Origin: Candidatus Saccharimonadota bacterium
Lineage (GTDB): Bacteria > Patescibacteriota > Saccharimonadia > Saccharimonadales > SLHW01
Length of the DNA: 64,000 nt
Direction: 5' to 3'
NCBI GenBank assembly: GCA_024635455.1
Contig: JAGXIU010000002.1
Coordinates: forward strand, 44,309-108,308
Shown here: positions 2,591 through 48,913 of the stretch, piece after piece
Layout: every line of letters begins with the position of its first letter
How positions within the stretch are numbered: position 1 is the stretch's first letter
Notes under the pieces: generated by a model
Databases searched by the model: none
Told to the model about the DNA's origin: nothing
What the model saw: the letters and a program-made list of their open reading frames with translations, nothing else
Program-made: the position numbers and the translations under genes

Positions 2591-4336
2591 TTACTGATTT
2601 TGATTGGCTTGGCTTGGTGGCATCATCGGCGGTGGAACTGGTGGCGGCTGGTTTGGGTTCTGTACTTGTTGATTAGGCGCTGATGTGTTTTGTGTGTCAT
2701 TTGGATGAATATTTAGATGTACAGGCTGAGCGTTTAATGCTTCAACGGGTGGCAAAGCTTGATCGGGGTTCGTATTGGACGTATCCGCAGCATCCATAAT
2801 CGCTTGGCGGGCTTCATCTAACTCAGCCGGTGTCTCATTTGACCTATGACTCGGACTTGGAGCCGTGCTGTGAGCAGGAGCAAAGTTCATATCTGGCTTA
2901 CTTGATGCCTCTGCTTGATTGTTACTGTCACCAGTTTGCTGGTGAGCGCCAACAGCCTGCTCGATGTCAGAAAGCGTTTGTGTCGGACTTTGTGGCTCCT
3001 CATCTTGAGACTGTTCTTGGCCGCCTGTATTCTGCTCATTCTCTGGGCTACTTTTATCTCCTTGACTGTGCTCATCGCTATCTGTTTGCTGAGATGCGGA
3101 ATTGTGTGAAAGAATTCTTTCGTTTCTATGGTCAGATGAAGACAGGGGGTCAACAGGCTCTTCCTCATCAGAGTTGTTTGCGCTGTTAGATTGATCATCT
3201 GACTCTTCTGGCTCATCCGGTAGCATAGCCCCTTGGGGTTTTGTTACGATTTTTGGTAACGTATCGTGCGATGCCCCGCTGTTTTGCGCAAATTCATTAT
3301 TTTGATTTATAGATTGTTGGCTGGTGCTGTTTCCTGAGTTGTCGTCTACATTATCCTGATCCATAGCCTGCAGATTGCCGTGTTCATCTATGTGAATCTG
3401 GTGACCATCTACGTCGTCCCCAGATTGGTCGTGGCTAATATGAAGCGTGCCATCGTCCTTCTTTCTGTGTGAACGAGCCTCTTCTGAAGCCTCATCATCA
3501 AGCTGTTGATTTTGTTTTGCAGGTTCAGGTGCTGGTGGAGTCGGAGCCGGGGGCTCAGGTGCTGGTGCAGGTTCAGGTGCTGGTGGAGTCGGAGCCGGGG
3601 GCTGAAGCTTTTCAGCGACAAGTTGCTGGTCAGCTCCAGCTTTTAGCAACCGAGAACCGAGTGTCATACTAGCTGGATTGGTCTTTTCATTGCTGAAGCG
3701 ATCCGTTTCTGCGACAAGTCCGGTAAGGAATGCGGTGGCAGTTTGACCATCAAGTAGGTTTTCGCCAACTTCGTCAACCAGGTGTCCAAGCATTTCGCAT
3801 AAACTACTCGCTTGCTCATCAAGCCAGTTAATTGAGCCGGCAGAGCCATTTTGATTCATATTTATTGTTGCAACAGTTGCATCATGCAAGATTCGACCAT
3901 GACTCGATATGGCTTTGTCTATGTCTGTTTGCTCATGCACGCCAAGCGCGATTACCAGGTCAACGTTAAAATCACCTTGAGAAAAGTTCAAATCGCTCTC
4001 GTGAATCGATGTGCGGTATGGTGATATAAATATTTTTACCTGTGTGTCTTCTACTTTGTAGCGCAGCTTATCTGCCTTTGATCGATCAAGTGAGATAATA
4101 AAGTCTCGAAGTGAGTCAGTGTTCTTCTCTAGTGTTTTCTCGGGCTGTAAGAATGAGATAATCGGCGGTGTTTGACCGCTGAAAACAGCCGTGGCATGTT
4201 TGTTTAATTTGTTGAGCACTAGCGTCAGGCCAATTGCGCCAGACAACTGATCAACTGAGGGGTTATTACTAACCGTTACGAGTACGTTTGTAGCCTCTTT
4301 GAGGCGAGTGATAAGCTGTTGCTTTTGTTCGTTCAT
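2591..4336 (-). CDS. NrnA/DHH-like protein with degenerate catalytic motifs and a ~350-aa disordered P/Q/N/D/E/S-rich tail
   Basis: The N-terminal ~240 aa aligns by eye to DHH/DHHA1 phosphoesterases (VSNNPSVDQLSGAIGL, DLVIALGV, TINMNQNG, FLTGLVAETDRF). The position upstream of truB matches the nrnA position in many operons. The start was moved to ATG 4336 (MNEQKQQ). Confidence 0.6.
   Translation of the reverse strand: MNEQKQQLITRLKEATNVLVTVSNNPSVDQLSGAIGLTLVLNKLNKHATAVFSGQTPPIISFLQPEKTLEKNTDSLRDFIISLDRSKADKLRYKVEDTQVKIFISPYRTSIHESDLNFSQGDFNVDLVIALGVHEQTDIDKAISSHGRILHDATVATINMNQNGSAGSINWLDEQASSLCEMLGHLVDEVGENLLDGQTATAFLTGLVAETDRFSNEKTNPASMTLGSRLLKAGADQQLVAEKLQPPAPTPPAPEPAPAPEPPAPTPPAPEPAKQNQQLDDEASEEARSHRKKDDGTLHISHDQSGDDVDGHQIHIDEHGNLQAMDQDNVDDNSGNSTSQQSINQNNEFAQNSGASHDTLPKIVTKPQGAMLPDEPEESDDQSNSANNSDEEEPVDPLSSSDHRNERILSHNSASQQTDSDEHSQGDKSSPENEQNTGGQEQSQDEEPQSPTQTLSDIEQAVGAHQQTGDSNNQAEASSKPDMNFAPAHSTAPSPSHRSNETPAELDEARQAIMDAADTSNTNPDQALPPVEALNAQPVHLNIHPNDTQNTSAPNQQVQNPNQPPPVPPPMMPPSQANQNQ
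3519..3604. repeat. 48-bp tandem repeat (~1.8 copies) inside the coding sequence, encoding PAPEP/PAPTPP repeats
   Basis: gcaggttcaggtgctggtggagtcggagccgggggct occurs at 3519 and again at 3567, identical over 37 nt. Confidence 0.9.
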
Positions 4337-4966: not shown

Positions 4967-5896
4967 TTAGGCTTTTGAGCCAAGTGAGACAATGAAGTAC
5001 CGTATTGCTTGATCGACATCAAGCGGTCTGGTCTTTTGTGCCCTATCAATATCTCGTAGCTCAGCGACGAGCTTAAATACCCGGCTACGGCCGATGATGC
5101 GTGAAATTTTCTGTATTTTTTCTATTGCATACGGGTGAACATGAGCATCGCTCGCGATCGATTGGCTCCTCGCTCCTCCAGGGGCAAAAGCTACGATTGC
5201 CAAGATTTGTAATTGCCTCGCCATCATAGCCAAAATTTGTTGAGGCTCGACTTTCTGAGCGCGCTGGTCTTCATATAGTTGTAGCGCCTTATCAACCTGG
5301 CCCGACAAAGCCGCATCGAGCAAATCAAATATTGAGCTTTGTGGCGTTGCATCACTCAACAGATCTATCGTGTGACGAGATATCGTCGAGCTATAAGCTA
5401 TGAGCTTATCAAGTTCGTTGTGCAACCTATACTGATCAACGCCGACTCGGCTTACAAGATACTGTGCATCTGAGCGAGTTATGTTAGCACCACGTGCCGA
5501 AGCTTCGTCCTGTAGCCAACCAGGGGCACTGTAGGGGTCAATGCCAGCAAACTCGCTCACATCAGTCTGCTTCTTGAGATACTTTGCGTACGTTGTACGC
5601 TTATCAAGCTGTGGCTCAACAATTATGATATCGAGTGCGTCTGACACGTTACCGAGTAGTGTTTCGTGCTGGTCTGTAAAACCAGTTATCTTGCCTGGTT
5701 GCTGCAGCACTACGCATTTCTTATCAGTCAAGAACGGTAAACTACCGAGACTGTCTTGTACGGAACGTAAATCTGACTCGGCGCCATCGATACGCTCCAA
5801 CGCGTGCTCACCATGCGCACCGACAAAGCTTTGAATACGTTTTTGCAAAGCCTGAGCAAGTAAATATTGGTTGTCTCCAGTAAGTGTATATATCAT
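4967..5896 (-). CDS. holA: DNA polymerase III subunit delta
   Basis: 309 aa from MIYTLTGDNQYLL, a HolA-like N-terminus. The ATG at 5896 overlaps the mutM TGA as ATGA. The alternative upstream start is 5923. Confidence 0.75.
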   Translation of the reverse strand: MIYTLTGDNQYLLAQALQKRIQSFVGAHGEHALERIDGAESDLRSVQDSLGSLPFLTDKKCVVLQQPGKITGFTDQHETLLGNVSDALDIIIVEPQLDKRTTYAKYLKKQTDVSEFAGIDPYSAPGWLQDEASARGANITRSDAQYLVSRVGVDQYRLHNELDKLIAYSSTISRHTIDLLSDATPQSSIFDLLDAALSGQVDKALQLYEDQRAQKVEPQQILAMMARQLQILAIVAFAPGGARSQSIASDAHVHPYAIEKIQKISRIIGRSRVFKLVAELRDIDRAQKTRPLDVDQAIRYFIVSLGSKA

Positions 5897-6777
5897 GTAG
5901 GTAGTGCCTGACAGTTTGAACAAATATGTGTGCCTCGACCGGCAACTCGAATCTTATCTATAGAGTTCTGGCAGCGCGTACATGGCTGTCCTTCGCGGCG
6001 GAAGACTTTGGCAAAATTCATATAACTCCCCTTCTTTCCTTCGGCATTTACATAGTTTTTGTTGGTCGAGCCACCTTTATTAATGGCTGTGTTCAGTACG
6101 AGACGCAATTCATCAAATAACGTATTCAATTGGTCGCTGGTTACATCTGCAACGCGAGTATTTGGATGAATACGCGCAGCCCATAGAGACTCGTCGGCGT
6201 ATATATTGCCGATACCAGCAATAACAGTCTGGTCTAGCAAGGCAGCCTTAATGCTGGTTTTTTGTCGGCGCTGAAATCGCTTAGCGAACATATCGGCGGT
6301 GAGCGAGTCGTCCAAAGGCTCAGGCCCAACCTTCTGAAAAAAAGACAGGTCTGCTACTGCAACGGTTGGTAGCAGCTTCATCCAGCCAAATTTACGTTGA
6401 TCGTTAAAAAACAGCTTACTTTCATTACTAAATGTAATCGTCACTCGAGTGGATTTATCGGGAAGACTGTTTATTAAGCTATCGCTTGGATGCCCTGCCC
6501 CAAAGCGTGATCCATTTGATTTTGAGCCAATAAAAACAAGCTGCCCAGTCATCTTTAGGTGAATCACGAGACTATAGTCAGTGTCTAGCTCAATAATAAG
6601 CACTTTAGCCCGTCTACGAACCGATGTGATTGTTGCACCAAGCATAAACCTATCAACATCAGCCTGGCTATTCGGAAAACCCTTCGGCCAGTCAAACGCA
6701 ACGTCTGCTATCGTGCATCCTAACACGAGCTTATCAAGCCCTCGACGGACAGTCTCAACTTCTGGTAACTCTGGCAT
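5893..6777 (-). CDS. mutM: formamidopyrimidine-DNA glycosylase
   Basis: It has the MPELPEVETVRRGL N-terminus and a C-terminal zinc finger, CTRCQNSIDKIRVAGRGTHICSNCQ. Confidence 0.92.
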   Translation of the reverse strand: MPELPEVETVRRGLDKLVLGCTIADVAFDWPKGFPNSQADVDRFMLGATITSVRRRAKVLIIELDTDYSLVIHLKMTGQLVFIGSKSNGSRFGAGHPSDSLINSLPDKSTRVTITFSNESKLFFNDQRKFGWMKLLPTVAVADLSFFQKVGPEPLDDSLTADMFAKRFQRRQKTSIKAALLDQTVIAGIGNIYADESLWAARIHPNTRVADVTSDQLNTLFDELRLVLNTAINKGGSTNKNYVNAEGKKGSYMNFAKVFRREGQPCTRCQNSIDKIRVAGRGTHICSNCQALPT

Positions 6778-7070: not shown

Positions 7071-7631
7071 CACTACATCGAGCGCTGTTTGTAGCTCATG
7101 GAGTCCGTTGTATACAAGTCCGTGCATGCCGACGGCTTCTGCAGCATCAGCATTATCTTCATTATCATCTATAAATACGCATGCTTCTGGGTCTACACCG
7201 AGACGTTCAGCCGCTAAATAGAATATATCAGGATGCGGCTTTGTTATCCCAACCCGAAACGACTCAATGATGTCATCGAACAACGCCTGTTCAGACGCAT
7301 CTAGCAATCGAGTCGTAATCCAGTCACTCGCAATGTTGCTCAATATAGCAAGCTTGTAATGTTTTTTTAACAAAGTTATGTAGGTAAGAAGCGCTGAGTT
7401 TTTGGCTGTCTCATCTAGCTTTACGTCCTCGATACGCTGGGGGGCGTGTCCGGTAAGATCTTTCAGCCGAAACAAATAATCATCATCAGATAGCATACCT
7501 GCATCATGTGCCCGATTAAGGTCATGTAGTGGTTGCTGGTCAATTGTAGGCGGCAAGCCGTCTAAATAACGTTGCCAAGTGCCAGTGGCTAAGACGCCAA
7601 AACAATCAAAAATTATAGCTTGTTTCTTCAT
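7041..7631 (-). CDS. HAD-superfamily hydrolase
   Basis: HAD motif I is AIIFDCFGVL. The C-terminal motif is VFIDDNEDNADAAEAVGM. Confidence 0.75.
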   Translation of the reverse strand: MKKQAIIFDCFGVLATGTWQRYLDGLPPTIDQQPLHDLNRAHDAGMLSDDDYLFRLKDLTGHAPQRIEDVKLDETAKNSALLTYITLLKKHYKLAILSNIASDWITTRLLDASEQALFDDIIESFRVGITKPHPDIFYLAAERLGVDPEACVFIDDNEDNADAAEAVGMHGLVYNGLHELQTALDVVLADGANTDV

Positions 7632-7655
7632 ACCTATACACTGTAACGCAAAATG

Positions 7656-8219
7656 CTAACGACGCGCATCACGAATTATATCGCGGTACTCTGGAATTTG
7701 CTCCTGAAACAATGTCATTACTGAACTTCTATCGCCAGCAAAGGTTCCATCTGAGCGCCCACAAGAACTGGTCCATGTTCGATGCACCACTTCATCATCA
7801 ACCCGTATCTCAAAAACAAAACGGCGACCAGATGGGCAAACACCATCCTCAGTTTCTATAGCACTTTGTCGCGTCTCGGTAGCATTGTTAGAATCTAGCG
7901 AATATAAAAGCGCTTTATATGCACTAGTAGTATTTGGAAGCCGCACTTGCTCTTCGATAGTTAAATCATAGCCACGCAGTACATCTAATGTGCGTTGTTG
8001 GGCGCTTACTGTTACACGGACTGCCTCAAATTCTTCGTTGGCAACAATGCGACCATATTCAGTAAAGGTAACCTCAGAATTCTGATCAAGATATGATGCA
8101 GCTAACGATGAGTCGGTACTAAGCTCAGACGGTGTATCACGAGAAGCAAGGCCAATAATACCAGCAATAAAGCCAGCGACAATGATTACCAAAATTGCTC
8201 CGCCAATAATGTATTTCAT
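7656..8219 (-). CDS. hypothetical membrane-anchored protein
   Basis: 187 aa. It has an N-terminal TM segment (IIGGAILVIIVAGFIAGIIGL) and no family I recognise. Confidence 0.55.
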   Translation of the reverse strand: MKYIIGGAILVIIVAGFIAGIIGLASRDTPSELSTDSSLAASYLDQNSEVTFTEYGRIVANEEFEAVRVTVSAQQRTLDVLRGYDLTIEEQVRLPNTTSAYKALLYSLDSNNATETRQSAIETEDGVCPSGRRFVFEIRVDDEVVHRTWTSSCGRSDGTFAGDRSSVMTLFQEQIPEYRDIIRDARR

Positions 8220-8300
8220 ACATTTATATTATACCACTCATACGGTATTTTACAATAGGCTCCATCTATAGCCTTTCGTCACCAAGCGTGGAGTAGATGT

Positions 8301-10946
8301 CTAAAGTTCACCCCAATGAGAACCAATTACTACGTCAACTTCTAAATTGACCGGTAATTTGTATATGTTCTGCATGGTATGCTTCATCTTCTTAGCTACA
8401 GATTCAGCAGACTCAGCAGGACATTCTACAAGGATTGAGTCGTGAATTTGCAGTAGCTGTGTTGCTCCAGACGGCAGGATATCGTCAACCGCCACCATAG
8501 CCATCTTCATAATATCGGCCTCAGTGCCTTGAATCGGCATGTTGATTGCTGCTCGTTCTGCGGCTTGACGAACAATAAAGTTACTCGACTTTATATCTGG
8601 TGTTGGCCGGCGGCGACCAAAAAGTGTTTCTACGTAGCCAACGTCGCGCGCCTGCATTTTTAAGCTCTCGATGTACTCCATAATTGGCTTGCGAATAGAA
8701 AAGTAAGTATCGATAAACTTTTTTGCGGCTGCGTAGGACATGCCGGTGGCTGCGACCAAACCGTGTGGACTCATGCCATACAAGATACCAAAGTTTATAA
8801 CCTTAGCGTCGCGTCGCATCGTCTTGGTTACGTCCTCGGGATTACGGCCATATATTTGTGCAGCTGTTGTAGTGTGAATATCGGCACCATCATTAAACAT
8901 CTTTATGAGCTCTTTATCATCAGCTAAGTATGCTGCTAAACGTAACTCGAACTGCGAGTAATCTGCGCTCACAAGCTTATTTCCCTCTGCAGCCACAAAG
9001 GCTCGACGAATTCGTTTACCAAGCTCAGTCCGCACTGGTATGTTTTGTAAATTTGGATCAGTTGAGCTGAGCCGACCAGTCTGAGCAATCGTTAAGTGAA
9101 ACGTGGTATGTACACGTGAGCGCTCGTCGACCAGCTTTGGCAGAGTATCGACATAGGTACTCTTCAGCTTGGTGTATTCACGGTACTTTAAAATACTCTC
9201 TATGACCGGATGTTGCCCGCGGAGCTTACCGAGCTGATTTGCAGCAGTTGAGTAGCCGGTTTTACCCTTTTTTATACCGTTAGTTGGCAGCTTCATCTCC
9301 TCAAACAATACCTCACTTAATTGTTTCGGTGAGGAAACGTTAAATTGCATATCGGCATACCCATAGATTTCTTGCTCGACGTCGTTAATATCATCAGCTA
9401 GTTCCTCTGACATTTTTTCTAAGTAAGCAGTATCGAGCTGAATACCTTCGTGTTCCATACGTGCCAAAACCGGTATAACTGGCCACTCCACGTCTTTCGC
9501 TAAATCGGTAAGCTTCGGTATATCTTGAAAGGACGTTTTTTGCTGTTTGTGTAGCGTCTTAATAAGCGCGCTGACCTCACCTGCTCGACTGGCAAACTCT
9601 TCGTCAGTGCAGTCCTCAAACGAAGATCCGTCGTAAGCAAATTCGGTTTGCGCTAACTCGGTGAGCGACTGTTCCCGTCGCAATGGGTTGAGTAAAAAAG
9701 CACCGACAAACACATCATGATCAACTTTTGGGAGCGGCAAACCTAGTTCGTACAAAACCTGCAAATTAGCTTTTGTATCATGCCCAATAATTGATTTTAC
9801 GGATGAAAAACAATCAGCCAATGCCTCAATAGATATATCAGCAAGAGTTATGACGTAGGTAGTCGGCTTATCTGCCTCTGAAACCGTTATTGCATAGGGT
9901 TGTTTGCCATGGGCATTTTTCGCCCTGCTTTGAATGTAGATAGTCTTTGCTAGGTTCAGTTTCTGTAAGGATTCGTCAGTTTTTATATAGACAACTTCTT
10001 CAGGTACGATACGCTTGCTTGTCGATAGTGCAGGCGTACTGATTGCACCGCTGCCGTTCATTGAATCAGGCAGTTGCCGAACAAGTGTCCTAAACTCGAG
10101 CTTTTCAAAAATAGATCGAATTTTTTCTACATCTATATCGTCACCATTCATTTTACTGACATCAAGTGGGATTGGTACGTCGGTCCAGATAGCGGCAATT
10201 TTTTTGCTCAAGTAGGCTGACTCTTTGCCGTCTTCGAGTTTTTTGCGCACAGAATTTTTTATAAGATCAAGGTTTGCATACACACCATCGAGCGAATCAT
10301 GCTCCTGAAGTAATTCTGTAGCCGTCTTCTCGCCAATGCCTGCTACCCCTGGGATATTATCAGATGAATCACCCTTTAATGCCTTAAAGTCAAGAAATTG
10401 ACTCGCTTTGATGCCATATTTTTTCTCCAGTGATTCTGGTTTGAATAATTCTATGTTACTTAAGCCTTTCTTGAGCGCATAGACATGAACTAATGGGTTA
10501 ACCAACTGCAGTACATCTAAATCGCTAGTGATGAGTTGCGTTTCTATACCCTGCTTGCTTGCCTCTACCGCAAACGTCCCCATAATGTCATCGGCCTCAT
10601 AGTCATCAATTTCATACAATGGCCAGCCAAACGCATCGAGTAATTCGTGCAGTACCGGGATCTGCTCATAGAAGTCTGGTGGGGGCGGTGTTCGGCCAGC
10701 TTTATATTCCGGGTATAACTCTTTACGTTTACGTATGTTGGTTTTTGGCTTATCCCACGCGACACAAACATAGTCTGGCTTAAGTTTCTTTATAACCTCT
10801 AGCGCCATAACTGCAAAACCATAGACTCCGCCAGTCGGGGTGCCGTCTTTCGTAGACAAATCGCGCATGGCATAGTACCCACGATAAAATACCGATTTAC
10901 CATCAATAATGGCTAATTTTTTGGGTGTATTGTTGGGTGTACTCAT
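8301..10946 (-). CDS. polA: DNA polymerase I
   Basis: 881 aa. It has a 5' nuclease N-terminus (LAIIDGKSVFYRGYYA) and polymerase motifs DYSQFELRLAAYL and QIHDSILVE. Confidence 0.96.
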   Translation of the reverse strand: MSTPNNTPKKLAIIDGKSVFYRGYYAMRDLSTKDGTPTGGVYGFAVMALEVIKKLKPDYVCVAWDKPKTNIRKRKELYPEYKAGRTPPPPDFYEQIPVLHELLDAFGWPLYEIDDYEADDIMGTFAVEASKQGIETQLITSDLDVLQLVNPLVHVYALKKGLSNIELFKPESLEKKYGIKASQFLDFKALKGDSSDNIPGVAGIGEKTATELLQEHDSLDGVYANLDLIKNSVRKKLEDGKESAYLSKKIAAIWTDVPIPLDVSKMNGDDIDVEKIRSIFEKLEFRTLVRQLPDSMNGSGAISTPALSTSKRIVPEEVVYIKTDESLQKLNLAKTIYIQSRAKNAHGKQPYAITVSEADKPTTYVITLADISIEALADCFSSVKSIIGHDTKANLQVLYELGLPLPKVDHDVFVGAFLLNPLRREQSLTELAQTEFAYDGSSFEDCTDEEFASRAGEVSALIKTLHKQQKTSFQDIPKLTDLAKDVEWPVIPVLARMEHEGIQLDTAYLEKMSEELADDINDVEQEIYGYADMQFNVSSPKQLSEVLFEEMKLPTNGIKKGKTGYSTAANQLGKLRGQHPVIESILKYREYTKLKSTYVDTLPKLVDERSRVHTTFHLTIAQTGRLSSTDPNLQNIPVRTELGKRIRRAFVAAEGNKLVSADYSQFELRLAAYLADDKELIKMFNDGADIHTTTAAQIYGRNPEDVTKTMRRDAKVINFGILYGMSPHGLVAATGMSYAAAKKFIDTYFSIRKPIMEYIESLKMQARDVGYVETLFGRRRPTPDIKSSNFIVRQAAERAAINMPIQGTEADIMKMAMVAVDDILPSGATQLLQIHDSILVECPAESAESVAKKMKHTMQNIYKLPVNLEVDVVIGSHWGEL

Positions 10947-41541: not shown

Positions 41542-41604
41542 TGTATGTTTCCTCCTCGATTATCTGTTCTTTGGTGGATTAGCGCTTCTCGCAAGTTGTT
41601 GTTT

Positions 41605-41631
41605 TTGGCACTCGCCAAAAACAAGTGCTAA
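41605..41631. promoter_or_regulatory. CIRCE-like operator (proximal copy)
   Basis: TTGGCACTC-N9-AAGTGCTAA versus the consensus TTAGCACTC-N9-GAGTGCTAA, with one mismatch per arm. It lies 64 nt upstream of groES. Confidence 0.65.
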
Positions 41632-41635
41632 TCCA

Positions 41636-41662
41636 TTAGCACTCACTATAGCCGACTGCTAA
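41636..41662. promoter_or_regulatory. CIRCE operator (distal copy)
   Basis: TTAGCACTC-N9-GACTGCTAA, with one mismatch to the consensus. Confidence 0.75.
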
Positions 41663-41690
41663 TTACTCTGTCAAGTCTCTGGCTGAAAGC

Positions 41691-42659
41691 TTATTCTGTT
41701 GGTTTATTAAGCCGCTGATATCTTTCGTCAAAGTCATCTCGATCATACGCCGGGACAACTCTAACCGTGTTGTCTAGCACCTCTTGAGTCAGCATCTTAA
41801 ATTCTTTTCGCAGCTGCAATGAGGTTTGATCGGGCGTTTCAAATCTAGTGCTCAAAAACTGTCTACCGAGTCGCTGCGTAATTCCTTTTGAACGTTCCGA
41901 GATCTTTTCTTTTTTGTTACCGACACCGCGCCCCGTTGACACGTTTTCGTTGTACCAGACAGGCAGGTCAGCGTTACCTTGCGCATTACCTTTCTGCGCA
42001 ACCCCGCTCATCCAATGTGTTCCTGCTATTCGAGCAGTCGGAAAAGCTTTCTCGAAAAATTTTTTTGCAATCGAAAGCGTGCTTCCCGTAGCTCGGACTT
42101 CGTCAACAATTAGAACCGTTTTGTCGTCCAGTTGAGTTGGTGCATTATCAATTTCTTCTGTTAAACCAGCTCGCTTATGGTTAATGTCAACAAAAATTGA
42201 TCGCAGACTTCGTATAACTGACTGGTCCACTCGATCAATATTAAAAATACCCGTACCATCAGGGTCAACACTAGATAGCCAGTGGTTTCGGTCTATATTT
42301 ACAAAGCGAAACTCAGGGCGTTTAGGTGTTTCACCCGACTCGTCCGCGGCAAGGATAGGCCACAAATCTTTTGTTAGCCAAGCGACTGGTCGAGCAGACT
42401 TATCAAGCCAAACAACATAATCAGGACGCTCTTCAACCTGTTCTCCAGTCTCTGGATCGGTAACTGATACACCTTTGGTAATCTTGTGTATAAGTTTATC
42501 CGTAAGATGGACGTACTGTCGATGTAGCTCTTCGTCAGTTTTTTCACTTCCGTCAGTACGTGGGTGGCCAACCAGTAATTGATATGGCTCTTTTTCTGAT
42601 TGCGCTACCTGTTCAAACTGTTCATGTTTAGAAAACTGCATAAGCATGTATAATAGCAT
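41691..42659 (-). CDS. phosphoribosyltransferase-domain protein with a long N-terminal extension
   Basis: The PRPP-binding motif is TVLIVDEVRATGSTL. About 190 aa of unrecognised sequence precede it. It lies 33 nt downstream of kinase-like gene A. Confidence 0.7.
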   Translation of the reverse strand: MLLYMLMQFSKHEQFEQVAQSEKEPYQLLVGHPRTDGSEKTDEELHRQYVHLTDKLIHKITKGVSVTDPETGEQVEERPDYVVWLDKSARPVAWLTKDLWPILAADESGETPKRPEFRFVNIDRNHWLSSVDPDGTGIFNIDRVDQSVIRSLRSIFVDINHKRAGLTEEIDNAPTQLDDKTVLIVDEVRATGSTLSIAKKFFEKAFPTARIAGTHWMSGVAQKGNAQGNADLPVWYNENVSTGRGVGNKKEKISERSKGITQRLGRQFLSTRFETPDQTSLQLRKEFKMLTQEVLDNTVRVVPAYDRDDFDERYQRLNKPTE

Positions 42660-42692
42660 ATTTTTGCTTATATTGCAAGGTTTAGCGTTTGG

Positions 42693-43817
42693 TTAAGGCG
42701 CGATCCGACGTGCTCTTTGCTGCACATCCATCAAGTCTCGAGCCTCTTCAAGCTTCGTGAGAACCATTTGGTCGTATGCTCGCGCTAAGGGGTCGCCTGG
42801 CCGAACACCAATACGCAACAAACGGTCATAGTACGGTAAAAAGAGTTTACTCAGCATAAAACTATAGGTTTCTAGCGGCTGTTTCTCGTCGTGTTCGTCC
42901 TTGAATAAATACCCGATGTATTCATAGATAGATTTCGCTACAAAAGAAAAGTCTTCGTTCATCTTCTCGGCAATCACGTCGACTTTCTCTGTAGCGTCAC
43001 GGTAGCTACGCGCATACTCAAGATCAATCACTCGTAGTGATCGTCCACTGTCTGCTACCGCGATATTGCGGAATTCAGCGTCACCGTGAAATATGTAGTG
43101 ACTGTGCAATAGCGCCATTGTATCGAGAACATGCTCCATTCTCTGCCCCGCCATCTCAGCGTCCATACCTGACCACTTCAGGCTATTGAGTGTTTCCATG
43201 TCTGCTTCAGTACGACTCACGACGTAACCATACGGCTGCGAACCGTCTTCTTCATCTCCACCCTCACTACCTGCTTCAGGTATTACAGCACCTGTTCGAA
43301 TAACTCCGATAACATCGAGTGCCGGCAACCCATACTGCGTCAGGTATTGGTGCATTCCGACTTCGTGTAACACCTTATAGTGATCTTTAACAGTGTTAGG
43401 TATCGGCTTGATAGCAACATCAATGGCGCCCGACTGCTGCTCGTGAAACCACTGACCTTCTAATCGTCCAAAAAATACCTGATGGCGCGATTTTTCCCGT
43501 CCAAGTCGATCAAATGGCTGCGCCTCAAACGATAAACGATCAGGGTAGCGGTACGGTGTGTCTTCGCGGAAAAAGCGAGGCGCAAAAAATACCGTGTCAC
43601 CAGAAGCTTCCAGCGACACATTCAAATTGCGTGACGGCTTACCGGTATGATCAACATACTGTCCAAGATTGGGTAGTTCGGCAAAATGACCCTGCCTGAG
43701 CGGCTCTAGAAGTTCGCGGAAAGTTTTTTGATTCTTTTCGTCAATGAGATTCCGGTTTTCAAAATAATAATCATCCAGAAACTCAAAGCCAATAACTTCA
43801 CTACTCTCTCCATCCAT
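42693..43817 (-). CDS. atypical protein-kinase-fold protein (Kdo/RIO/APH-like), copy A
   Basis: It has VAIKPI (beta3 Lys), HEVGM, the catalytic loop FHGDAEFRNIAV, and VIDLEYA. The start was set at ATG 43817, inside the last codons of the partner gene. Confidence 0.7.
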   Translation of the reverse strand: MDGESSEVIGFEFLDDYYFENRNLIDEKNQKTFRELLEPLRQGHFAELPNLGQYVDHTGKPSRNLNVSLEASGDTVFFAPRFFREDTPYRYPDRLSFEAQPFDRLGREKSRHQVFFGRLEGQWFHEQQSGAIDVAIKPIPNTVKDHYKVLHEVGMHQYLTQYGLPALDVIGVIRTGAVIPEAGSEGGDEEDGSQPYGYVVSRTEADMETLNSLKWSGMDAEMAGQRMEHVLDTMALLHSHYIFHGDAEFRNIAVADSGRSLRVIDLEYARSYRDATEKVDVIAEKMNEDFSFVAKSIYEYIGYLFKDEHDEKQPLETYSFMLSKLFLPYYDRLLRIGVRPGDPLARAYDQMVLTKLEEARDLMDVQQRARRIAP

Positions 43818-44454
43818 AGTCGACTTCCTCCACAATGCGGCGAGCCAGCGGTTCGGTGCTAATGGGTGCTTCACCACTCATTAAAAATCCCGCAAACCCT
43901 ACCAGCTGTTCGTCTAGTGCTTTTGGTTCATCCGTTAACGAATATGGCGGCAAAAAAACAACACGTGCCCCTAAATCTGACTGTCGATCGGGGTAAAAAG
44001 CAAACTGCTGCAACCAGTTGCCAGACGGCGCGCCAAAACCAGCCTCGTGCAGCTTGCGCAACTGCTGCCCAAGTAGACGGAACACGGACATGTACTGCGT
44101 CGTATCGTAATGTTCTTGCTGAGCATCTCCTATTAACGCTACCAGCGATTCAATACTTCTAGTATTTTTCGGCACTGGTAACACAATTTTGTCATTGATG
44201 TGCGTCTTCTCAAGCACATCAATCCCAGAGTCTCGCAATCTGTCATGACTTGATTCGACGGCAGAACCTTCACGTATAACAATAATCCGCTCACGCAGTC
44301 GGTCACTATAGAGTTCGTGCACGTCTATATCAGATGTATCTGTGTCGGTGAGCAGTGCAAATGTATCTTCTATCGGATAAAGGTCGCCGTAGATAACCTG
44401 CAGGGTTTCATAGTCAAATCGCTCGCCTGAATCGGCGATATCAAACTCCATCAT
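43801..44454 (-). CDS. hypothetical protein, partner of kinase-like copy A
   Basis: 217 aa. It is a paralog of 45764..46390, sharing ERII, VLPVP, FRLLG..LR..HE...G.PSGNWL.QFA and VV.LPPY. Confidence 0.65.
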   Translation of the reverse strand: MMEFDIADSGERFDYETLQVIYGDLYPIEDTFALLTDTDTSDIDVHELYSDRLRERIIVIREGSAVESSHDRLRDSGIDVLEKTHINDKIVLPVPKNTRSIESLVALIGDAQQEHYDTTQYMSVFRLLGQQLRKLHEAGFGAPSGNWLQQFAFYPDRQSDLGARVVFLPPYSLTDEPKALDEQLVGFAGFLMSGEAPISTEPLARRIVEEVDYGWRE

Positions 44455-44540
44455 AGTTTCTATATTATAGCACTTTTTTAGTTTTTTATCAAAGGATGGA
44501 TTTTTCTATTCCTTTATAAGCGCTGTTTTTATAACAGCCG

Positions 44541-44652
44541 CTTCGACCCACTCGAGGAGTTTACCACCCATATTACGGGTGTCGGTGGCCGATGCCGGTA
44601 CAAAGCACGTGGTTGTATGCTCCTGCTAAGGGGTCGCCCGGCCGAACACCAA
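44541..44652 (-). pseudogene. chimeric gene remnant: a kinase-A-like 3' fragment abutting a murE-like 3' fragment
   Basis: 44541..44608 aligns to 46468..46535, with about 10 mismatches and a 2-nt deletion over ~68 nt. 44611..44652 aligns to 42770..42811, with 4 mismatches in 42. Confidence 0.8.
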
Positions 44653-44715
44653 GCTTAGATCCGGCTAGCAACGAAGGGGATCGATAAAACACCTAGCATT
44701 ACTAAAGCTTATGAC

Positions 44716-45789
44716 TTATGCGTGGCGCCAGTAACCCTCATCTCCAACAGCCTCATCAAGCCTGCGAGAAACTACGTTATCATATGCGAGACCAAGTGGA
44801 TCCTGGGGTGTAATCCCAAATTTAACCAGCCTGTTGAAATAAGGTAAAAACACGTGTTCATGCATAAAATTAAATCGATCTGTTAGTGAGGTAACGTCAG
44901 CTTCATTCTGGTACAGATGACCAACATTTCCGTCAAGAGAAGATGCAAGAAAGCTAAAGTCGGATTTCATAAACAAAGATAACTTTCGTACATCATCTTG
45001 CTCATCAAGCAGGCTCCCCGATAGTTCCAAATCAACTATCGTAGGCTTTTGATTGGCATCACAAACGGCAATATTTTTAAAAGCTGGGTCACCATGAAAT
45101 ATATAATTTGCGTGCAGTAAAGCGAGCGTGTCGACTGCATGGCTCAAGGCGTTTGCAGCCTCCTTGGCGGTCATATCACCCCACTCAAGCGTATCGAGAG
45201 TTCGAATATCCGGTTCGTATCGAGTAATTACAAATCCGTATATATCAGGCGCATCTGATTTAATAAGTCCCAAGACGTCCAACGTCGGAACATCAAGTGA
45301 CGCAACATGTTGGTACATCGCTATTTCATGCAGCGATTGCTGATGCTTAATAAAATCCTTGGCATGCGGTATGGTGCTTACGGCAACCTCTACTGTTGGT
45401 TTTTCTTCTGATGCAACTCCTATGCCTGACATCTCACCAAAAAATAACTGCCTCCTGGAGTCTTCTCGACCAAACCTAAAAAGCGGACGAGGCGCAAAAG
45501 CAAACTCTTGCTTTGGCGCAACCTCTACACCCGAGTGAAATAAGGCGGCCGCTTTTTCACTTTCTAGTATTTCATGCACAGCGGAGCTTCGACCACCACG
45601 ATGATTCAGGGCAGCTCTTACATCTGGTAGTTCACCTATTGGACGGTGCGTAAGTCCCTCAAGAGATTCGATAAATACCGCTTGGTTACGATCACTAACT
45701 TCACGTCGCTCTGGATCGTTGTAGTAGTTTGGCTTTACACCTTGAGGGAAATGCTCGCCCGAGTTACGTTTCTCGATTCCACCCATCAT
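44716..45789 (-). CDS. atypical protein-kinase-fold protein, copy B
   Basis: It has FHGDPAFKNIAV and IVDLELS. The position of the beta3 Lys reads VAVSTI. The start ATG 45789 (MMGG) lies inside the partner gene's last codons. Confidence 0.68.
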   Translation of the reverse strand: MMGGIEKRNSGEHFPQGVKPNYYNDPERREVSDRNQAVFIESLEGLTHRPIGELPDVRAALNHRGGRSSAVHEILESEKAAALFHSGVEVAPKQEFAFAPRPLFRFGREDSRRQLFFGEMSGIGVASEEKPTVEVAVSTIPHAKDFIKHQQSLHEIAMYQHVASLDVPTLDVLGLIKSDAPDIYGFVITRYEPDIRTLDTLEWGDMTAKEAANALSHAVDTLALLHANYIFHGDPAFKNIAVCDANQKPTIVDLELSGSLLDEQDDVRKLSLFMKSDFSFLASSLDGNVGHLYQNEADVTSLTDRFNFMHEHVFLPYFNRLVKFGITPQDPLGLAYDNVVSRRLDEAVGDEGYWRHA

Positions 45790-46390
45790 GCACTTCCCAC
45801 GCAAGCTGCGTTATTGTTGTCTCGTTCAGATTTGTCGTATCAGCAAGCTGCAATCCAATTTCGGTCATGGCGTTCACAGCTCTTTCATGCGTGTTGTATG
45901 GAGGCAATAACACTACCTTGGCGCCATATTTTTCCCCCGCATCAGGATGATACGCAAACTGGTCGAGCCAATTGCCTGACGGTAAGCCAACATTGCTTTC
46001 ATGAATAGCACGCAGCTCGCCTCCAAGTAGCCGAAATACAATCGAATAATTTTGCGGGTCTCGCTCAATGAATCCTGCAATAGTGCGCATGCTTCGAGCG
46101 CCCTCCGGTACAGGAAGTACTCTATCTTCCCCAAGAGACTTCTTTTGCAACAAATGAACTCCGTTTGCCACCAAATAATCGTGGGTTTCTTCAATTTTTG
46201 ATCCGCCCTTGAATGTAATAATCCGCTCTGGAGTCTTGGTTGTCGTCCACTCTTTTACGTCTGACCCGAATGTCTCGACATCAGACAGCAATGAAAAAGA
46301 GCGCTGGACCGGGCGAAGGGTTCCAAAGGTTTCATAGAATGACTCTGGCAAACTAGGGTGCTCACCGCGATCTAGATAGTGCTCTGACAT
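45764..46390 (-). CDS. hypothetical protein, partner of kinase-like copy B
   Basis: 208 aa. It is a paralog of 43801..44454. Confidence 0.65.
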   Translation of the reverse strand: MSEHYLDRGEHPSLPESFYETFGTLRPVQRSFSLLSDVETFGSDVKEWTTTKTPERIITFKGGSKIEETHDYLVANGVHLLQKKSLGEDRVLPVPEGARSMRTIAGFIERDPQNYSIVFRLLGGELRAIHESNVGLPSGNWLDQFAYHPDAGEKYGAKVVLLPPYNTHERAVNAMTEIGLQLADTTNLNETTITQLAWEVHDGWNRET

Positions 46391-46420
46391 ATACCATATT
46401 GTAACACTTTTTTGTAGAAT

Positions 46421-47716
46421 TTACAATTGTTTTTTGGTTCTCTTTAGAAGTTGGGTGACGATTTTTACTTCGTCCCATTTGACGAGCTTGCCGCCCATAT
46501 TACGGGTGTCTTGGTGGCCGATACCAGTGCAAAGCACAACGTCACCTGACTTTGCTTCTTTCAGTGCGGCCTGGATGGCCTTTTTGCGATCAGCTATTTC
46601 AGTTGTTTTCTTTACGCCCTTGCCCTGCTTGATACCGCTCATAACATCTTTGCGGATCTTAGCTGGATCTTCAGTGTAGGTCTCGTCGTCAGTGAGGAAA
46701 ATTTTGTCAGCTAGCTCAGCAGCTACCTTGCCCATCTTGGGTCTTTTGTCGGTGTCTCGATCGCCCGTTGCTCCAAATACTACTAAAACTCGCTTATCGG
46801 TCAATGCTCGCAGTGATTGTAAGGACTTCTCAAGTGCATCTGATGTAACTGCATAATCTACTAGTACCGTATAGTCTGTTTTTGTATCGACTATCTGCAT
46901 ACGGCCCGGCACCTGATCGAGGGATGCCAGCCCCTTAGTAATTTGCTCAGCCGACAAGCCCAGCACTGCACCAACGCCAGCAGCAGCAGCTGAATTATAG
47001 GCATTAAAGTCACCAATAAGCTTCAGGTCGCAGGCTGATTTTTTTCCCTCTATTTTTAGACTGAGCCTGGTGCCACTTACGCTTGGATCAACACTAGACA
47101 ACACAATATCTGCGTCACGCTTTACTCCATAACTATTTACCAAACCAACGCTCTGCTTTGCAAAATAATTGTACTTAGCATCATCTCGGTTCAAAACACA
47201 ATACATCGGCTGCATATACTCATTAAATAATCGCACTTTCATAGCAATGTATTCATCCATAGAGCCGTGATAATCGAGGTGGTCTTGAGAAATATTTGTC
47301 AAAACTGATACTTCAACCGGGATATTAAGCACTTTGTGCTGATGAAGCGCGTGGCTAGTCACCTCGAGCACGACGTAATCAACCTGGCTGTCTTTGGCTC
47401 GCTTCAAAAACTGCAGTAGATCAGCGGTCTTCGGCACAGTGGTGTGGCGTGTATTGAGTTTTGCTACGCCTGCTACCTCAACACTAGCCGTTGTAAACAT
47501 AGCTGTTTTATAGCCGGCTGATTTAAGCATTGCATTTATCAGCATACAAGTGGTTGTCTTGCCGTTCGTTCCTGTAACCGCTATCACCTGCAAATCCCGC
47601 GCTGGGTATCCGTAGCGTATCTGCATGGCGCGAATCCTGCTTTTGCGATATGTTTCCTCAGCAGTTTTTATACCGCTGGCAGGAAGAACTTTACGAGCAA
47701 ATTTCTTTGGGTTCAT
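46421..47716 (-). CDS. Mur ligase family protein (MurE-like, short N-terminus)
   Basis: The P-loop is IAVTGTNGKTTT. The C-terminal region reads FLTDDETYTEDPAKI...GDVVLCTGIGHQ. The start is ATG 47716. Confidence 0.75.
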   Translation of the reverse strand: MNPKKFARKVLPASGIKTAEETYRKSRIRAMQIRYGYPARDLQVIAVTGTNGKTTTCMLINAMLKSAGYKTAMFTTASVEVAGVAKLNTRHTTVPKTADLLQFLKRAKDSQVDYVVLEVTSHALHQHKVLNIPVEVSVLTNISQDHLDYHGSMDEYIAMKVRLFNEYMQPMYCVLNRDDAKYNYFAKQSVGLVNSYGVKRDADIVLSSVDPSVSGTRLSLKIEGKKSACDLKLIGDFNAYNSAAAAGVGAVLGLSAEQITKGLASLDQVPGRMQIVDTKTDYTVLVDYAVTSDALEKSLQSLRALTDKRVLVVFGATGDRDTDKRPKMGKVAAELADKIFLTDDETYTEDPAKIRKDVMSGIKQGKGVKKTTEIADRKKAIQAALKEAKSGDVVLCTGIGHQDTRNMGGKLVKWDEVKIVTQLLKRTKKQL

Positions 47717-47842
47717 ATCACTATAATACCGCAAAAACAGTCAATCACCGCCGCTAGTTTTTATTAGAATTAACTCGACAATTAATGAAGCACTCTGCAA
47801 GCATGAGTAACAGCAATCAGCAACATGCTATCATCACTAATA

Positions 47843-48913
47843 ATGAAAATACTCGGTATTGAGACTAGTTGTGACGAGACAGCCTGTGCAGTAGTTGCAA
47901 ATGGCAACACACTTCTGAGCAACGTGGTTTTCTCTAGCATTGATCAGCACGTTGCCTATGGTGGCGTTGTACCAGAAATCGCAGCGCGTAGCCACATCGA
48001 GGCAATGACCCCAGTTATCAAGCAAGCGCTGAGCGATGCGAAGTGCTCTTGGGGTGATATTGATGGCATCGCCGTAACTTACGGTGCTGGACTCGGCGGT
48101 TCATTGCTCATAGGAGTCATCACCGCTCGAACCTTGGCCATCTCAAAGCAATTACCGCTGTATGCCTGCAACCATGTTGAGGGGCACATTTACGCTAACT
48201 TTTTAACCTCCGGAGCTACGCCGGCAGTCAATGACTACAAGATGCGAGGTGAGCAGCCTGAGTTTCCAATGCTCGGGGTCATCGTCTCTGGTGGACACAC
48301 ACAACTTGTGCTTTGGAAGGATCATTTCGATTATCAGCTCCTGGGGCGAACACGAGACGATGCCGTCGGAGAAGCGTTTGATAAAGTAGCAAAAATTATC
48401 GGACTCCCCTACCCTGGCGGTCCGAGTATCAGCCAAAAAGCGAAGCAGGGTAACGCGAACTCATACGAGTTACCGAAAGCCAAATTATCTAACCCATATG
48501 AATTTTCCTATAGCGGGCTCAAGACAGCCGTTCTACGACTTGCGCAGAAAGAAGTTGGAGAAGATTACAGCTTTCCTTCGTTTAAGCTTGCAGAGCGCCT
48601 ATCTGACGCCCAGAAGGCAAATATTGCAGCGAGCTTCCAACGTATTGCTATTGAAACGCTTGTCGATAAGGCTGCACTTGCTTACGAAGAATATCAGCCA
48701 AGAAGTGTCGTTATTGGCGGTGGCGTAGCCAGCAGTCAAGAATTACGTAAACAGCTATCCGAGCGACTCCCCTTGCCTATCTCCTACCCTGATGCACGAC
48801 TATGCACTGATAACGCCGCTATGATAGCGACACTGGGTTGTTTTCAGGCAGCACAGAAACGACCAACTGCGGATCCTTACAGCTTGAGCATTCAGCCAAA
48901 CTTATCGATGTAA
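47843..48913 (+). CDS. tsaD: tRNA N6-adenosine threonylcarbamoyltransferase
   Basis: It has MKILGIETSCDETA, NHVEGHIY and VSGGHTQL. Confidence 0.92.
   Translation: MKILGIETSCDETACAVVANGNTLLSNVVFSSIDQHVAYGGVVPEIAARSHIEAMTPVIKQALSDAKCSWGDIDGIAVTYGAGLGGSLLIGVITARTLAISKQLPLYACNHVEGHIYANFLTSGATPAVNDYKMRGEQPEFPMLGVIVSGGHTQLVLWKDHFDYQLLGRTRDDAVGEAFDKVAKIIGLPYPGGPSISQKAKQGNANSYELPKAKLSNPYEFSYSGLKTAVLRLAQKEVGEDYSFPSFKLAERLSDAQKANIAASFQRIAIETLVDKAALAYEEYQPRSVVIGGGVASSQELRKQLSERLPLPISYPDARLCTDNAAMIATLGCFQAAQKRPTADPYSLSIQPNLSM

Follow-up and report, generated by a model that had tools for sequence, protein, structure and literature searches.

Background

Novel joints formed by tandem duplication in bacteria are known from the classical duplication literature on Salmonella and E. 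coli. Such duplications are normally lost again by recombination between the copies and are not fixed as fossils.

[quoted passage not shown] C-terminal displacement, together with 'orphan' arrays, is described by Kirchberger et al. 2017 (PMC5361080), who cite Jackson et al. 2009, for Rhs, CDI and type VI effector-immunity loci.

The current work concerns a locus in a 64-kb stretch of a Saccharimonadia genome, the whole of which is referred to as the window. An earlier note on this DNA had read part of a spacer between two gene pairs, modules B and A, as a joint left by head-to-tail duplication. The reading preferred here, to which a probability of about 0.6 is given, is that positions 44506-44654 are a non-functional recombination scar, consisting of a displaced murE end and a 45-nt copy of the kinase A gene, and that it arose by native tandem duplication followed by foreign replacement.

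Organization of the locus

All genes of the locus are on the minus strand and lie downstream of tsaD, which is divergent:

tsaD, 47825-48913, divergent from the murE side: a Kae1 homologue
murE, 47734-46421, minus strand: matches to NCBIfam and Pfam Mur ligase models reach the model end
Module B, 44716..46390, minus strand: a gene pair that appears to be imported (nested in clade B; absent from L019 and L001)
Partner B (pB), 46390-45764, minus strand: part of module B
Kinase B (kB), 45804-44716, minus strand: part of module B
Spacer between kB and pA, 44715-44455, minus strand: 261 nt
Module A, 42693..44454, minus strand: the vertically inherited resident pair (colinear with L019 in blastn; clade A with 100% bootstrap)
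Partner A (pA), 44454-43801, minus strand: part of module A
Kinase A (kA), 43877-42693, minus strand: part of module A
Phosphoribosyltransferase-like gene of 322 aa, 42659-41691, minus strand: 3' of kA
groES and groEL, minus strand: 3' of the phosphoribosyltransferase-like gene

Both kinases match protein-kinase, Bud32 and Kdo-kinase models only weakly and around the catalytic loop, and the predicted model of kA has a protein-kinase-like fold. Protein identity is 35% between kA and kB and 41% between pA and pB. In blastn the two modules have no DNA similarity beyond the matches related to the scar, and no further module paralogues were found in the 64-kb window. The partner protein, which lacks the HGD motif present in kA and kB, has no Pfam or NCBIfam match. 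The best matches of its low-confidence predicted model (pLDDT 65, from two sequences) are small kinase folds, namely WaaP, human PRPK, yeast Bud32 of the KEOPS complex and Rio1, with TM about 0.5 and E 1e-4. The conserved module may combine a Bud32-like, possibly inactive, kinase fold with a larger kinase, encoded beside tsaD. In the window and in all relatives, murE is without the canonical MurE N-terminal domain; matches to the models start at model positions 67-96, and the protein has ~430 aa.

The best promoter match between 41.5 and 47.9 kb (11/12 positions) lies just upstream of pA and is conserved in L019 and L001. A second promoter-like site is found before pB (46398-46426), with its -35 element overlapping the murE stop codon. 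In the partner-gene sites the -10 element ends ~7 nt 5' of the ATG, and the mRNAs may accordingly be leaderless or nearly so. A similar motif of the -10 region (repeat family D3) occurs again 5' of the phosphoribosyltransferase-like gene, at 42648-42665. Upstream of groES (window 41542-41700), a TTGACA promoter is followed by CIRCE-like inverted repeats, TTAGCACTC-N9-GAGTGCTAA, the usual HrcA-type heat-shock operator. The same arrangement of TTGACA and CIRCE-like repeats is also present 5' of groES in L006, L008, L009, L020 and L025.

The locus in related Saccharimonadia

Roughly 20 related Saccharimonadia loci were compared; the sole close relatives among them, L019 and L001, are both metagenomic contigs. 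The partner-kinase pair sits between murE and groES throughout Saccharimonadia, once in most of these loci; in three of them (L014, L016 and L017) a kinase was matched and a partner was not. The closest relative found, L019 (a 116-kb JGI contig), has a single module in the order tsaD, then murE-pA-kA, two other genes, groES and groEL. Its protein identity to the window is 90% for tsaD, 90% for murE, 98% for groEL, 81% for pA and 82% for kA. The next relative, L001 (murE 81% and kA 77% identical), has only the order murE-pA-kA. Both carry the A-type module alone, and module B is absent. Protein searches with kA, kB and murE, together with scans of genome and metagenome contigs, returned nothing between L019 and the window except identical assemblies.

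The earlier note had proposed a comparison of related genomes for one, two or three module copies. None of the roughly 20 loci contains two intact modules, and extra module fragments do occur, in L001 and L022. The related claim that the locus gains and loses copies receives independent support from the L001 fragment, which lies 3' of the kinase.

This fragment (L001 3602-3721) covers ~100 nt of a second A-type partner gene, reads LDAASTSVVDVYESYDYRLRGRIIVICEASAV, and shares 53-59% identity with residues 35-66 of the partner (E 1e-6). It lies ~80 nt 3' of the kinase stop, is truncated by a convergent gene, and represents what is left of a further extra module in a separate lineage. The fragment in L022, a distant relative, is an inverted kinase-like piece (3517-4182, minus strand) between murE and the partner-kinase module. 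In L004 the A-type kinase is called as two ORFs of 50 aa and 322 aa (1083-2248), which suggests a frameshift, by pseudogenization or by sequencing error. Gene content between the kinase and groES varies as well, and this interval is a second variable spot of the locus. In the window it holds the 322-aa phosphoribosyltransferase-like gene (41691-42659), and in L019 two unrelated ORFs of 222 and 128 aa (7280-8374). In L012 a phosphoribosyltransferase-like gene (58% identical) is placed between murE and the partner, at 5422-6300.

Composition of the scar

The 261-nt spacer (44455-44715) was used as a blastn query against the entire 64-kb window, and just two significant non-self matches were obtained, both of them as the earlier note had claimed. 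The first pairs 44541-44608 with the murE 3' end at 46468-46537 (58/70 identity with 10 mismatches and a single 2-nt gap, E 1e-14), in line with the roughly 10 mismatches and 2-nt deletion given in that note. The second pairs 44610-44652 with the kA 3' region at 42769-42811 (39/43 identical, E 8e-12). A separate repeat finder gave the same pairs (families D1, D2 and D6; D1 spacing 1841), and tblastn likewise detected both fragments. The parts of the scar and their counterparts can be listed as follows:

44655..44715, minus strand: 61 nt after the kB stop, taken as the right end of the putative imported block
44610..44654, minus strand: 45-nt copy of the kA 3' region, reading LGVRPGDPLAGAYN; source at 42769-42813
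44542..44608, minus strand: murE-derived region 1, VLCTGIGH..TRNMGGKLLEWVE, with a frame-breaking 2-nt deletion; native type
44506..44541, minus strand: original murE C-terminal tail, AAVIKTALIKE and the stop TAG at 44508-44506, recognised from the murE of relatives
44464..44492, minus strand: promoter-like site of pA, TTGATA-17-TATAAT with a TG extension, just 3' of the displaced murE stop
46421..46466, minus strand: present murE C-terminal tail, VKIVTQLLKRTKKQL and stop; foreign-looking, the putative left end of the imported block
46468..46537, minus strand: sister copy of region 1 in the working murE; 46537 is the duplication breakpoint x
42769..42813, minus strand: source region in kA; 42769 is the duplication breakpoint y

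On the minus strand the spacer reads ..LGVRPGDPLAGAYNH, joined directly to VLCTGIGH, the 2-nt deletion, TRNMGGKLLEWVEAAVIKTALIKE and a stop. The kinase piece (44654-44610) directly precedes the murE piece (44608-44506); base 44609 can be assigned to neither source, and patchy microhomology (TG..TT) is found at the joint. In register, the kinase piece agrees with the window kA at 39/45 positions, with L019 kA at 33/45, with L001 kA at 32/45 and with kB at only 21/45, and its earlier assignment to kinase A and not kinase B (44611..44652) holds. Region 1 agrees with the window murE at 57/67 positions, with L019 at 51/67, with L001 at 53/67 and with B-type genomes at 41-50/67, and it retains clade-specific residues; all such counts are small, given fragment lengths of 45, 67 and 36 nt. 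The 61 nt at 44655-44715 have no homology to kA, and they match nothing in the window or in any fetched locus, the regions 3' of B-type kinases included.

The scar is not an assembly artefact, because L002 and L003, Logan assemblies made independently from the same population, match the locus at 100% identity over 21 kb and 10.9 kb. Its G+C content (0.60 vs 0.46 in the window) and its position directly 5' of a strong promoter-like site might be taken as signs of an element with a function of its own, perhaps a small RNA, a terminator or a regulatory leader, whose likeness to murE and the kinase would be incidental. The spacer has no Rfam match at E up to 1, folds no better than shuffled sequence (z -1.6) and contains no terminator-like site. 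The similarity is colinear with the coding sequence of relatives down to the stop codon, and the chimeric piece is missing from the equivalent spacers of L019 and L001; in the 216-nt murE-pA spacer of L001 only the promoter-proximal ~32 nt match. A functional element or an artefact is accordingly a very improbable explanation, and the scar has no detectable present function. Mobile elements were also considered. A transposon, integron or IS was rejected: a search for flanking inverted repeats found none, 41.6-47.8 kb contains no recombinase gene, and the sole flanking direct repeat is the 70-nt murE piece.

The displaced end of murE

In the earlier note the murE piece ended at 44541. The match from 44541 to 44608 stands, and the end does not. 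The piece continues to the stop codon at 44508-44506, and this extension past 44541 is detectable only against the murE of relatives. With L019 murE as the tblastn query, the extension is 75% identical over 24 aa (E 3.5e-6); its 33 tail nucleotides agree with L019 at 22/33, with L001 at 23/33 and with the tail of the window's own murE at 9/33.

A single blastn alignment (78%) joins L019 5267-7164 to window 44608-42714. It opens with the first base of the murE fragment and continues through the tail, stop, promoter, pA and kA. At base level L019 reads ..WDEVAVIKKALKK and stop, then CCTTTGATAAA..TGCTATAAT; the scar reads ..WVEAAVIKTALIKE and stop, then the same two elements. Because of this colinearity, the 103-nt murE piece (44608-44506) is the original murE 3' end in its ancestral context and not a stray copy. 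At present the scar simply sits 3' of the kB stop and 5' of the pA promoter.

The ancestral order murE...kA is given by L019 and L001. As in the joints of tandem duplications, the downstream kinase 3' region is joined directly before the upstream murE 3' region; the two pieces have the same orientation, derive from the window's own lineage and share little or no homology at the joint, and the unit measures 1.84 kb. This fits the earlier proposal that a kinase 3' end fused to a murE 3' end is the novel joint of a tandem duplication, with two native sequences in head-to-tail order. Unlike a standing duplication, the locus does not have two full flanking copies: only the downstream copy is intact, the upstream one is gone except for 70 nt and 45 nt, and the interior is a divergent gene pair of foreign type. 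Unlike most tandem duplications, which recombination between copies removes, the joint is fixed as a fossil.

Native type and age of the scar pieces

Of the 23 sites that distinguish the window's working copies from L019, the scar has the window state at 17 and the L019 state at five (binomial p 0.008), which places both sides of the joint in the same lineage (17/22 informative sites). With L001 as outgroup, five window-derived states are common to the scar and three are not. Judged by these shared states and by the match counts given above, both pieces are native to the window lineage and younger than its split from L019, and the joint therefore formed after that split. Its place on the window branch is about three eighths of the way back, and a rough distance estimate agrees with this (15/113 differences, set beside a third-codon-position identity between the window and L019 of 0.55-0.60); gene conversion between copies could mimic recency.

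Campbell-type integration, in which a foreign circle enters by a single crossover in murE, predicts a donor-type region 1 and a donor-type kinase piece; it was rejected, since both are native. The native type and the age of both pieces also make an additional A-type copy the simplest reading, as the earlier note had proposed. The plain deletion by which that copy was supposed to have disappeared is not supported; replacement by a foreign block is the reading preferred here. Among the genomes searched, none contains an intact A-A tandem intermediate.

The working murE tail and the origin of module B

The murE gene of L019 aligns to the working murE of the window only down to 46467. When the two genes are compared in 45-nt windows, the six lowest identities all fall in the last ~45 nt (47-58% vs a mean of 81%). 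Region 1 is 83% identical between the two, the adjoining tail codons 42% (14/33). Over these 33 nt the working tail agrees with L006 at 23/33, with L024 at 22/33, with L019 at 14/33 and with the scar tail at 9/33. The working murE thus looks like a native core to which an imported tail, nearest to that of B-type genomes, has been attached. This likeness is only moderately discriminating (23/33 vs 19/33 for some other genomes), the tail being lysine-rich and of low complexity. A switch from recipient type to donor type lies inside murE, over few sampled sites.

Neighbour-joining trees with bootstraps were constructed for the backbone and the modules. The backbone tree groups the window with L019 (100%) and then with L001 (100%). 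In the module trees, kA and pA fall in clade A (100% support) with L019, L001, L004 and L005, and kB and pB are placed inside clade B, together with L006, L008, L023 and L024. Conflict between backbone and module trees was set aside as proof of cassette exchange, because the backbone trees are poorly resolved outside the clade of the window, L019 and L001.

The earlier note implied that modules A and B arose by duplication in place. The A-only loci of L019 and L001 and the nesting of module B among the modules of other lineages speak against this, and from its tree position and its absence from the two nearest relatives, module B appears to be a foreign import and not an in-place duplicate of A. 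No donor-like genome was found: the nearest relatives of module B are merely 55-61% identical, and the best reach about 61%. In G+C content and GC3, pB and kB do not stand out from their neighbours, and base composition gives no information on a foreign origin.

The divergence of kB (57-61% identity to L006 and L008) is that of old orthologues at such a species distance, and ancient paralogy with later differential loss would also agree with it. In such a history the ancestor would have had murE-pB-kB-pA-kA, the outcome of an early tandem duplication, most lineages would have lost one module, and the window would have retained both. The scar would then be the old joint, kept close to its sources by gene conversion, or what remains of a later duplication of the whole array trimmed by two deletions. 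Two deep, well supported clades at a similar backbone distance agree with this history (the murE genes of L004, which is A-type, and L008, which is B-type, are both about 67% identical to the window), as does the identity of the window kB to B-type kinases, approximately that expected for orthologues so far apart. It was also the implicit view of the earlier note. For this history to hold, L019 and L001 would each have had to lose B independently and precisely, restoring an in-frame murE with the tail found in the scar. If a pseudogene piece dated from the A/B split (35-41% protein identity), it could not have stayed 85-91% identical to its sources, and the scar shares with the working copies of the window derived states that postdate the L019 split. 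Moreover, the difference between the working murE tail and the type shared by L019, L001 and the scar is left unexplained, and both modules occur together in no other sampled genome. Ancient paralogy is therefore judged improbable.

Discussion

Proposed sequence of events

The preferred reading, native duplication followed by foreign replacement, begins with an ancestor shared with L019, in which divergent tsaD would have been followed by murE-pA-kA-...-groES-groEL. After the split from L019, a head-to-tail duplication of 1,840 bp would have generated the new joint of kA, at y, with murE, at x. Of the two ends of the duplicated segment, x would have lain 117 nt 5' of the murE stop and y about 75 nt 5' of the kA stop; 1,840 nt separate them on the intact copy (44608 to 42769). 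The interior of the upstream copy, starting with the murE tail and ending 45 nt short of y, would later have been replaced by a 1.8-kb block from another Saccharimonadia lineage. This block (46466-44655; 1,812 nt) would comprise the murE tail, pB, kB and 61 nt. What is left of the upstream copy are 70 nt (46537-46468) and 45 nt (44654-44610), the remainder being module B; a full second A copy would probably have existed in the past.

The left crossover would have taken place in conserved murE coding sequence, and the right end, probably at 44655, would have been joined without recognisable homology. Homology-facilitated illegitimate recombination may have been the mechanism, and the duplication probably preceded the import. 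As in the described cases, one end of the block lies inside conserved murE, marked by the identity break at 46467, and the other end abuts recipient DNA without recognisable homology. Unlike typical cases, only one copy of a duplicate was apparently hit and no native sequence seems to have been lost. The native module would have survived because the copy that was replaced was redundant.

A single complex event could account for the same breakpoints and for the native origin of the fragments with no full tandem duplication. Foreign DNA would have been integrated through one murE anchor with two template switches: the first would have copied 45 nt of filler from kA, 1.8 kb away, and the second would have rejoined murE 70 nt upstream of the crossover, thereby duplicating the short region 1. 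Short templated insertions from nearby sequence are an established phenomenon at illegitimate joints, and the patchy microhomology (TG..TT) between kA and murE would suit a template switch; only 45 nt and 70 nt remain of the presumed upstream copy, so that a full second A module is unproven. Three joints would have to form at once, though, while tandem duplications are common and yield exactly a joint of this orientation, and the second-partner relic of L001 demonstrates that extra copies of whole modules do occur at the locus. For these reasons the single event is considered rather unlikely, and duplication followed by replacement is retained.

Displacement and cassette exchange

The resulting architecture, murE (native core and new tail)-pB-kB-[old murE end]-pA-kA, is that of a displacement. 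As at Rhs, CDI and type VI loci, the conserved gene gains a new 3' end and cassette, the old end and cassette are pushed downstream and kept, and alternative cassette types occupy the same locus in different genomes. The differences are that the conserved gene is a housekeeping cell-wall ligase and not a toxin, and that the displaced cassette is intact, with its own promoter, after a single displacement that has formed no array. No toxin or immunity domains were found, the cassette proteins having kinase-like folds. Membership in the Rhs/CDI/type VI class was rejected: murE is a Mur ligase to its end, there is no secreted toxin, and the architecture alone is alike.

Tentatively, and with considerable doubt, types A and B of the partner-kinase pair may be deeply diverged 'alleles' of one polymorphic cassette, located between murE and groES in Saccharimonadia, that lineages exchange by recombination anchored in the flanking housekeeping genes. 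If so, the scar would for the first time record such an exchange at base resolution, stopped half-way with the old and new cassettes stacked and the murE tail displaced, and it would give direct evidence of uptake-type illegitimate recombination in an uncultivated episymbiont.

Significance

The scar is a well preserved example of known processes and not a new kind of element. It allows a rare reconstruction, at base level, of three breakpoints (the right boundary being the probable one proposed above) by which a streamlined Saccharimonadia genome would have gained a second, divergent module with no loss of the native copy and with the essential murE unbroken. The locus also gives a caution for the reading of gene clusters: adjacent paralogues are not necessarily duplicates made in place, since here a real duplication joint lies beside a neighbouring paralogue that appears to be imported. 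The interval between murE and groES emerges as a recombination hotspot, with two deep module types spread over related lineages.
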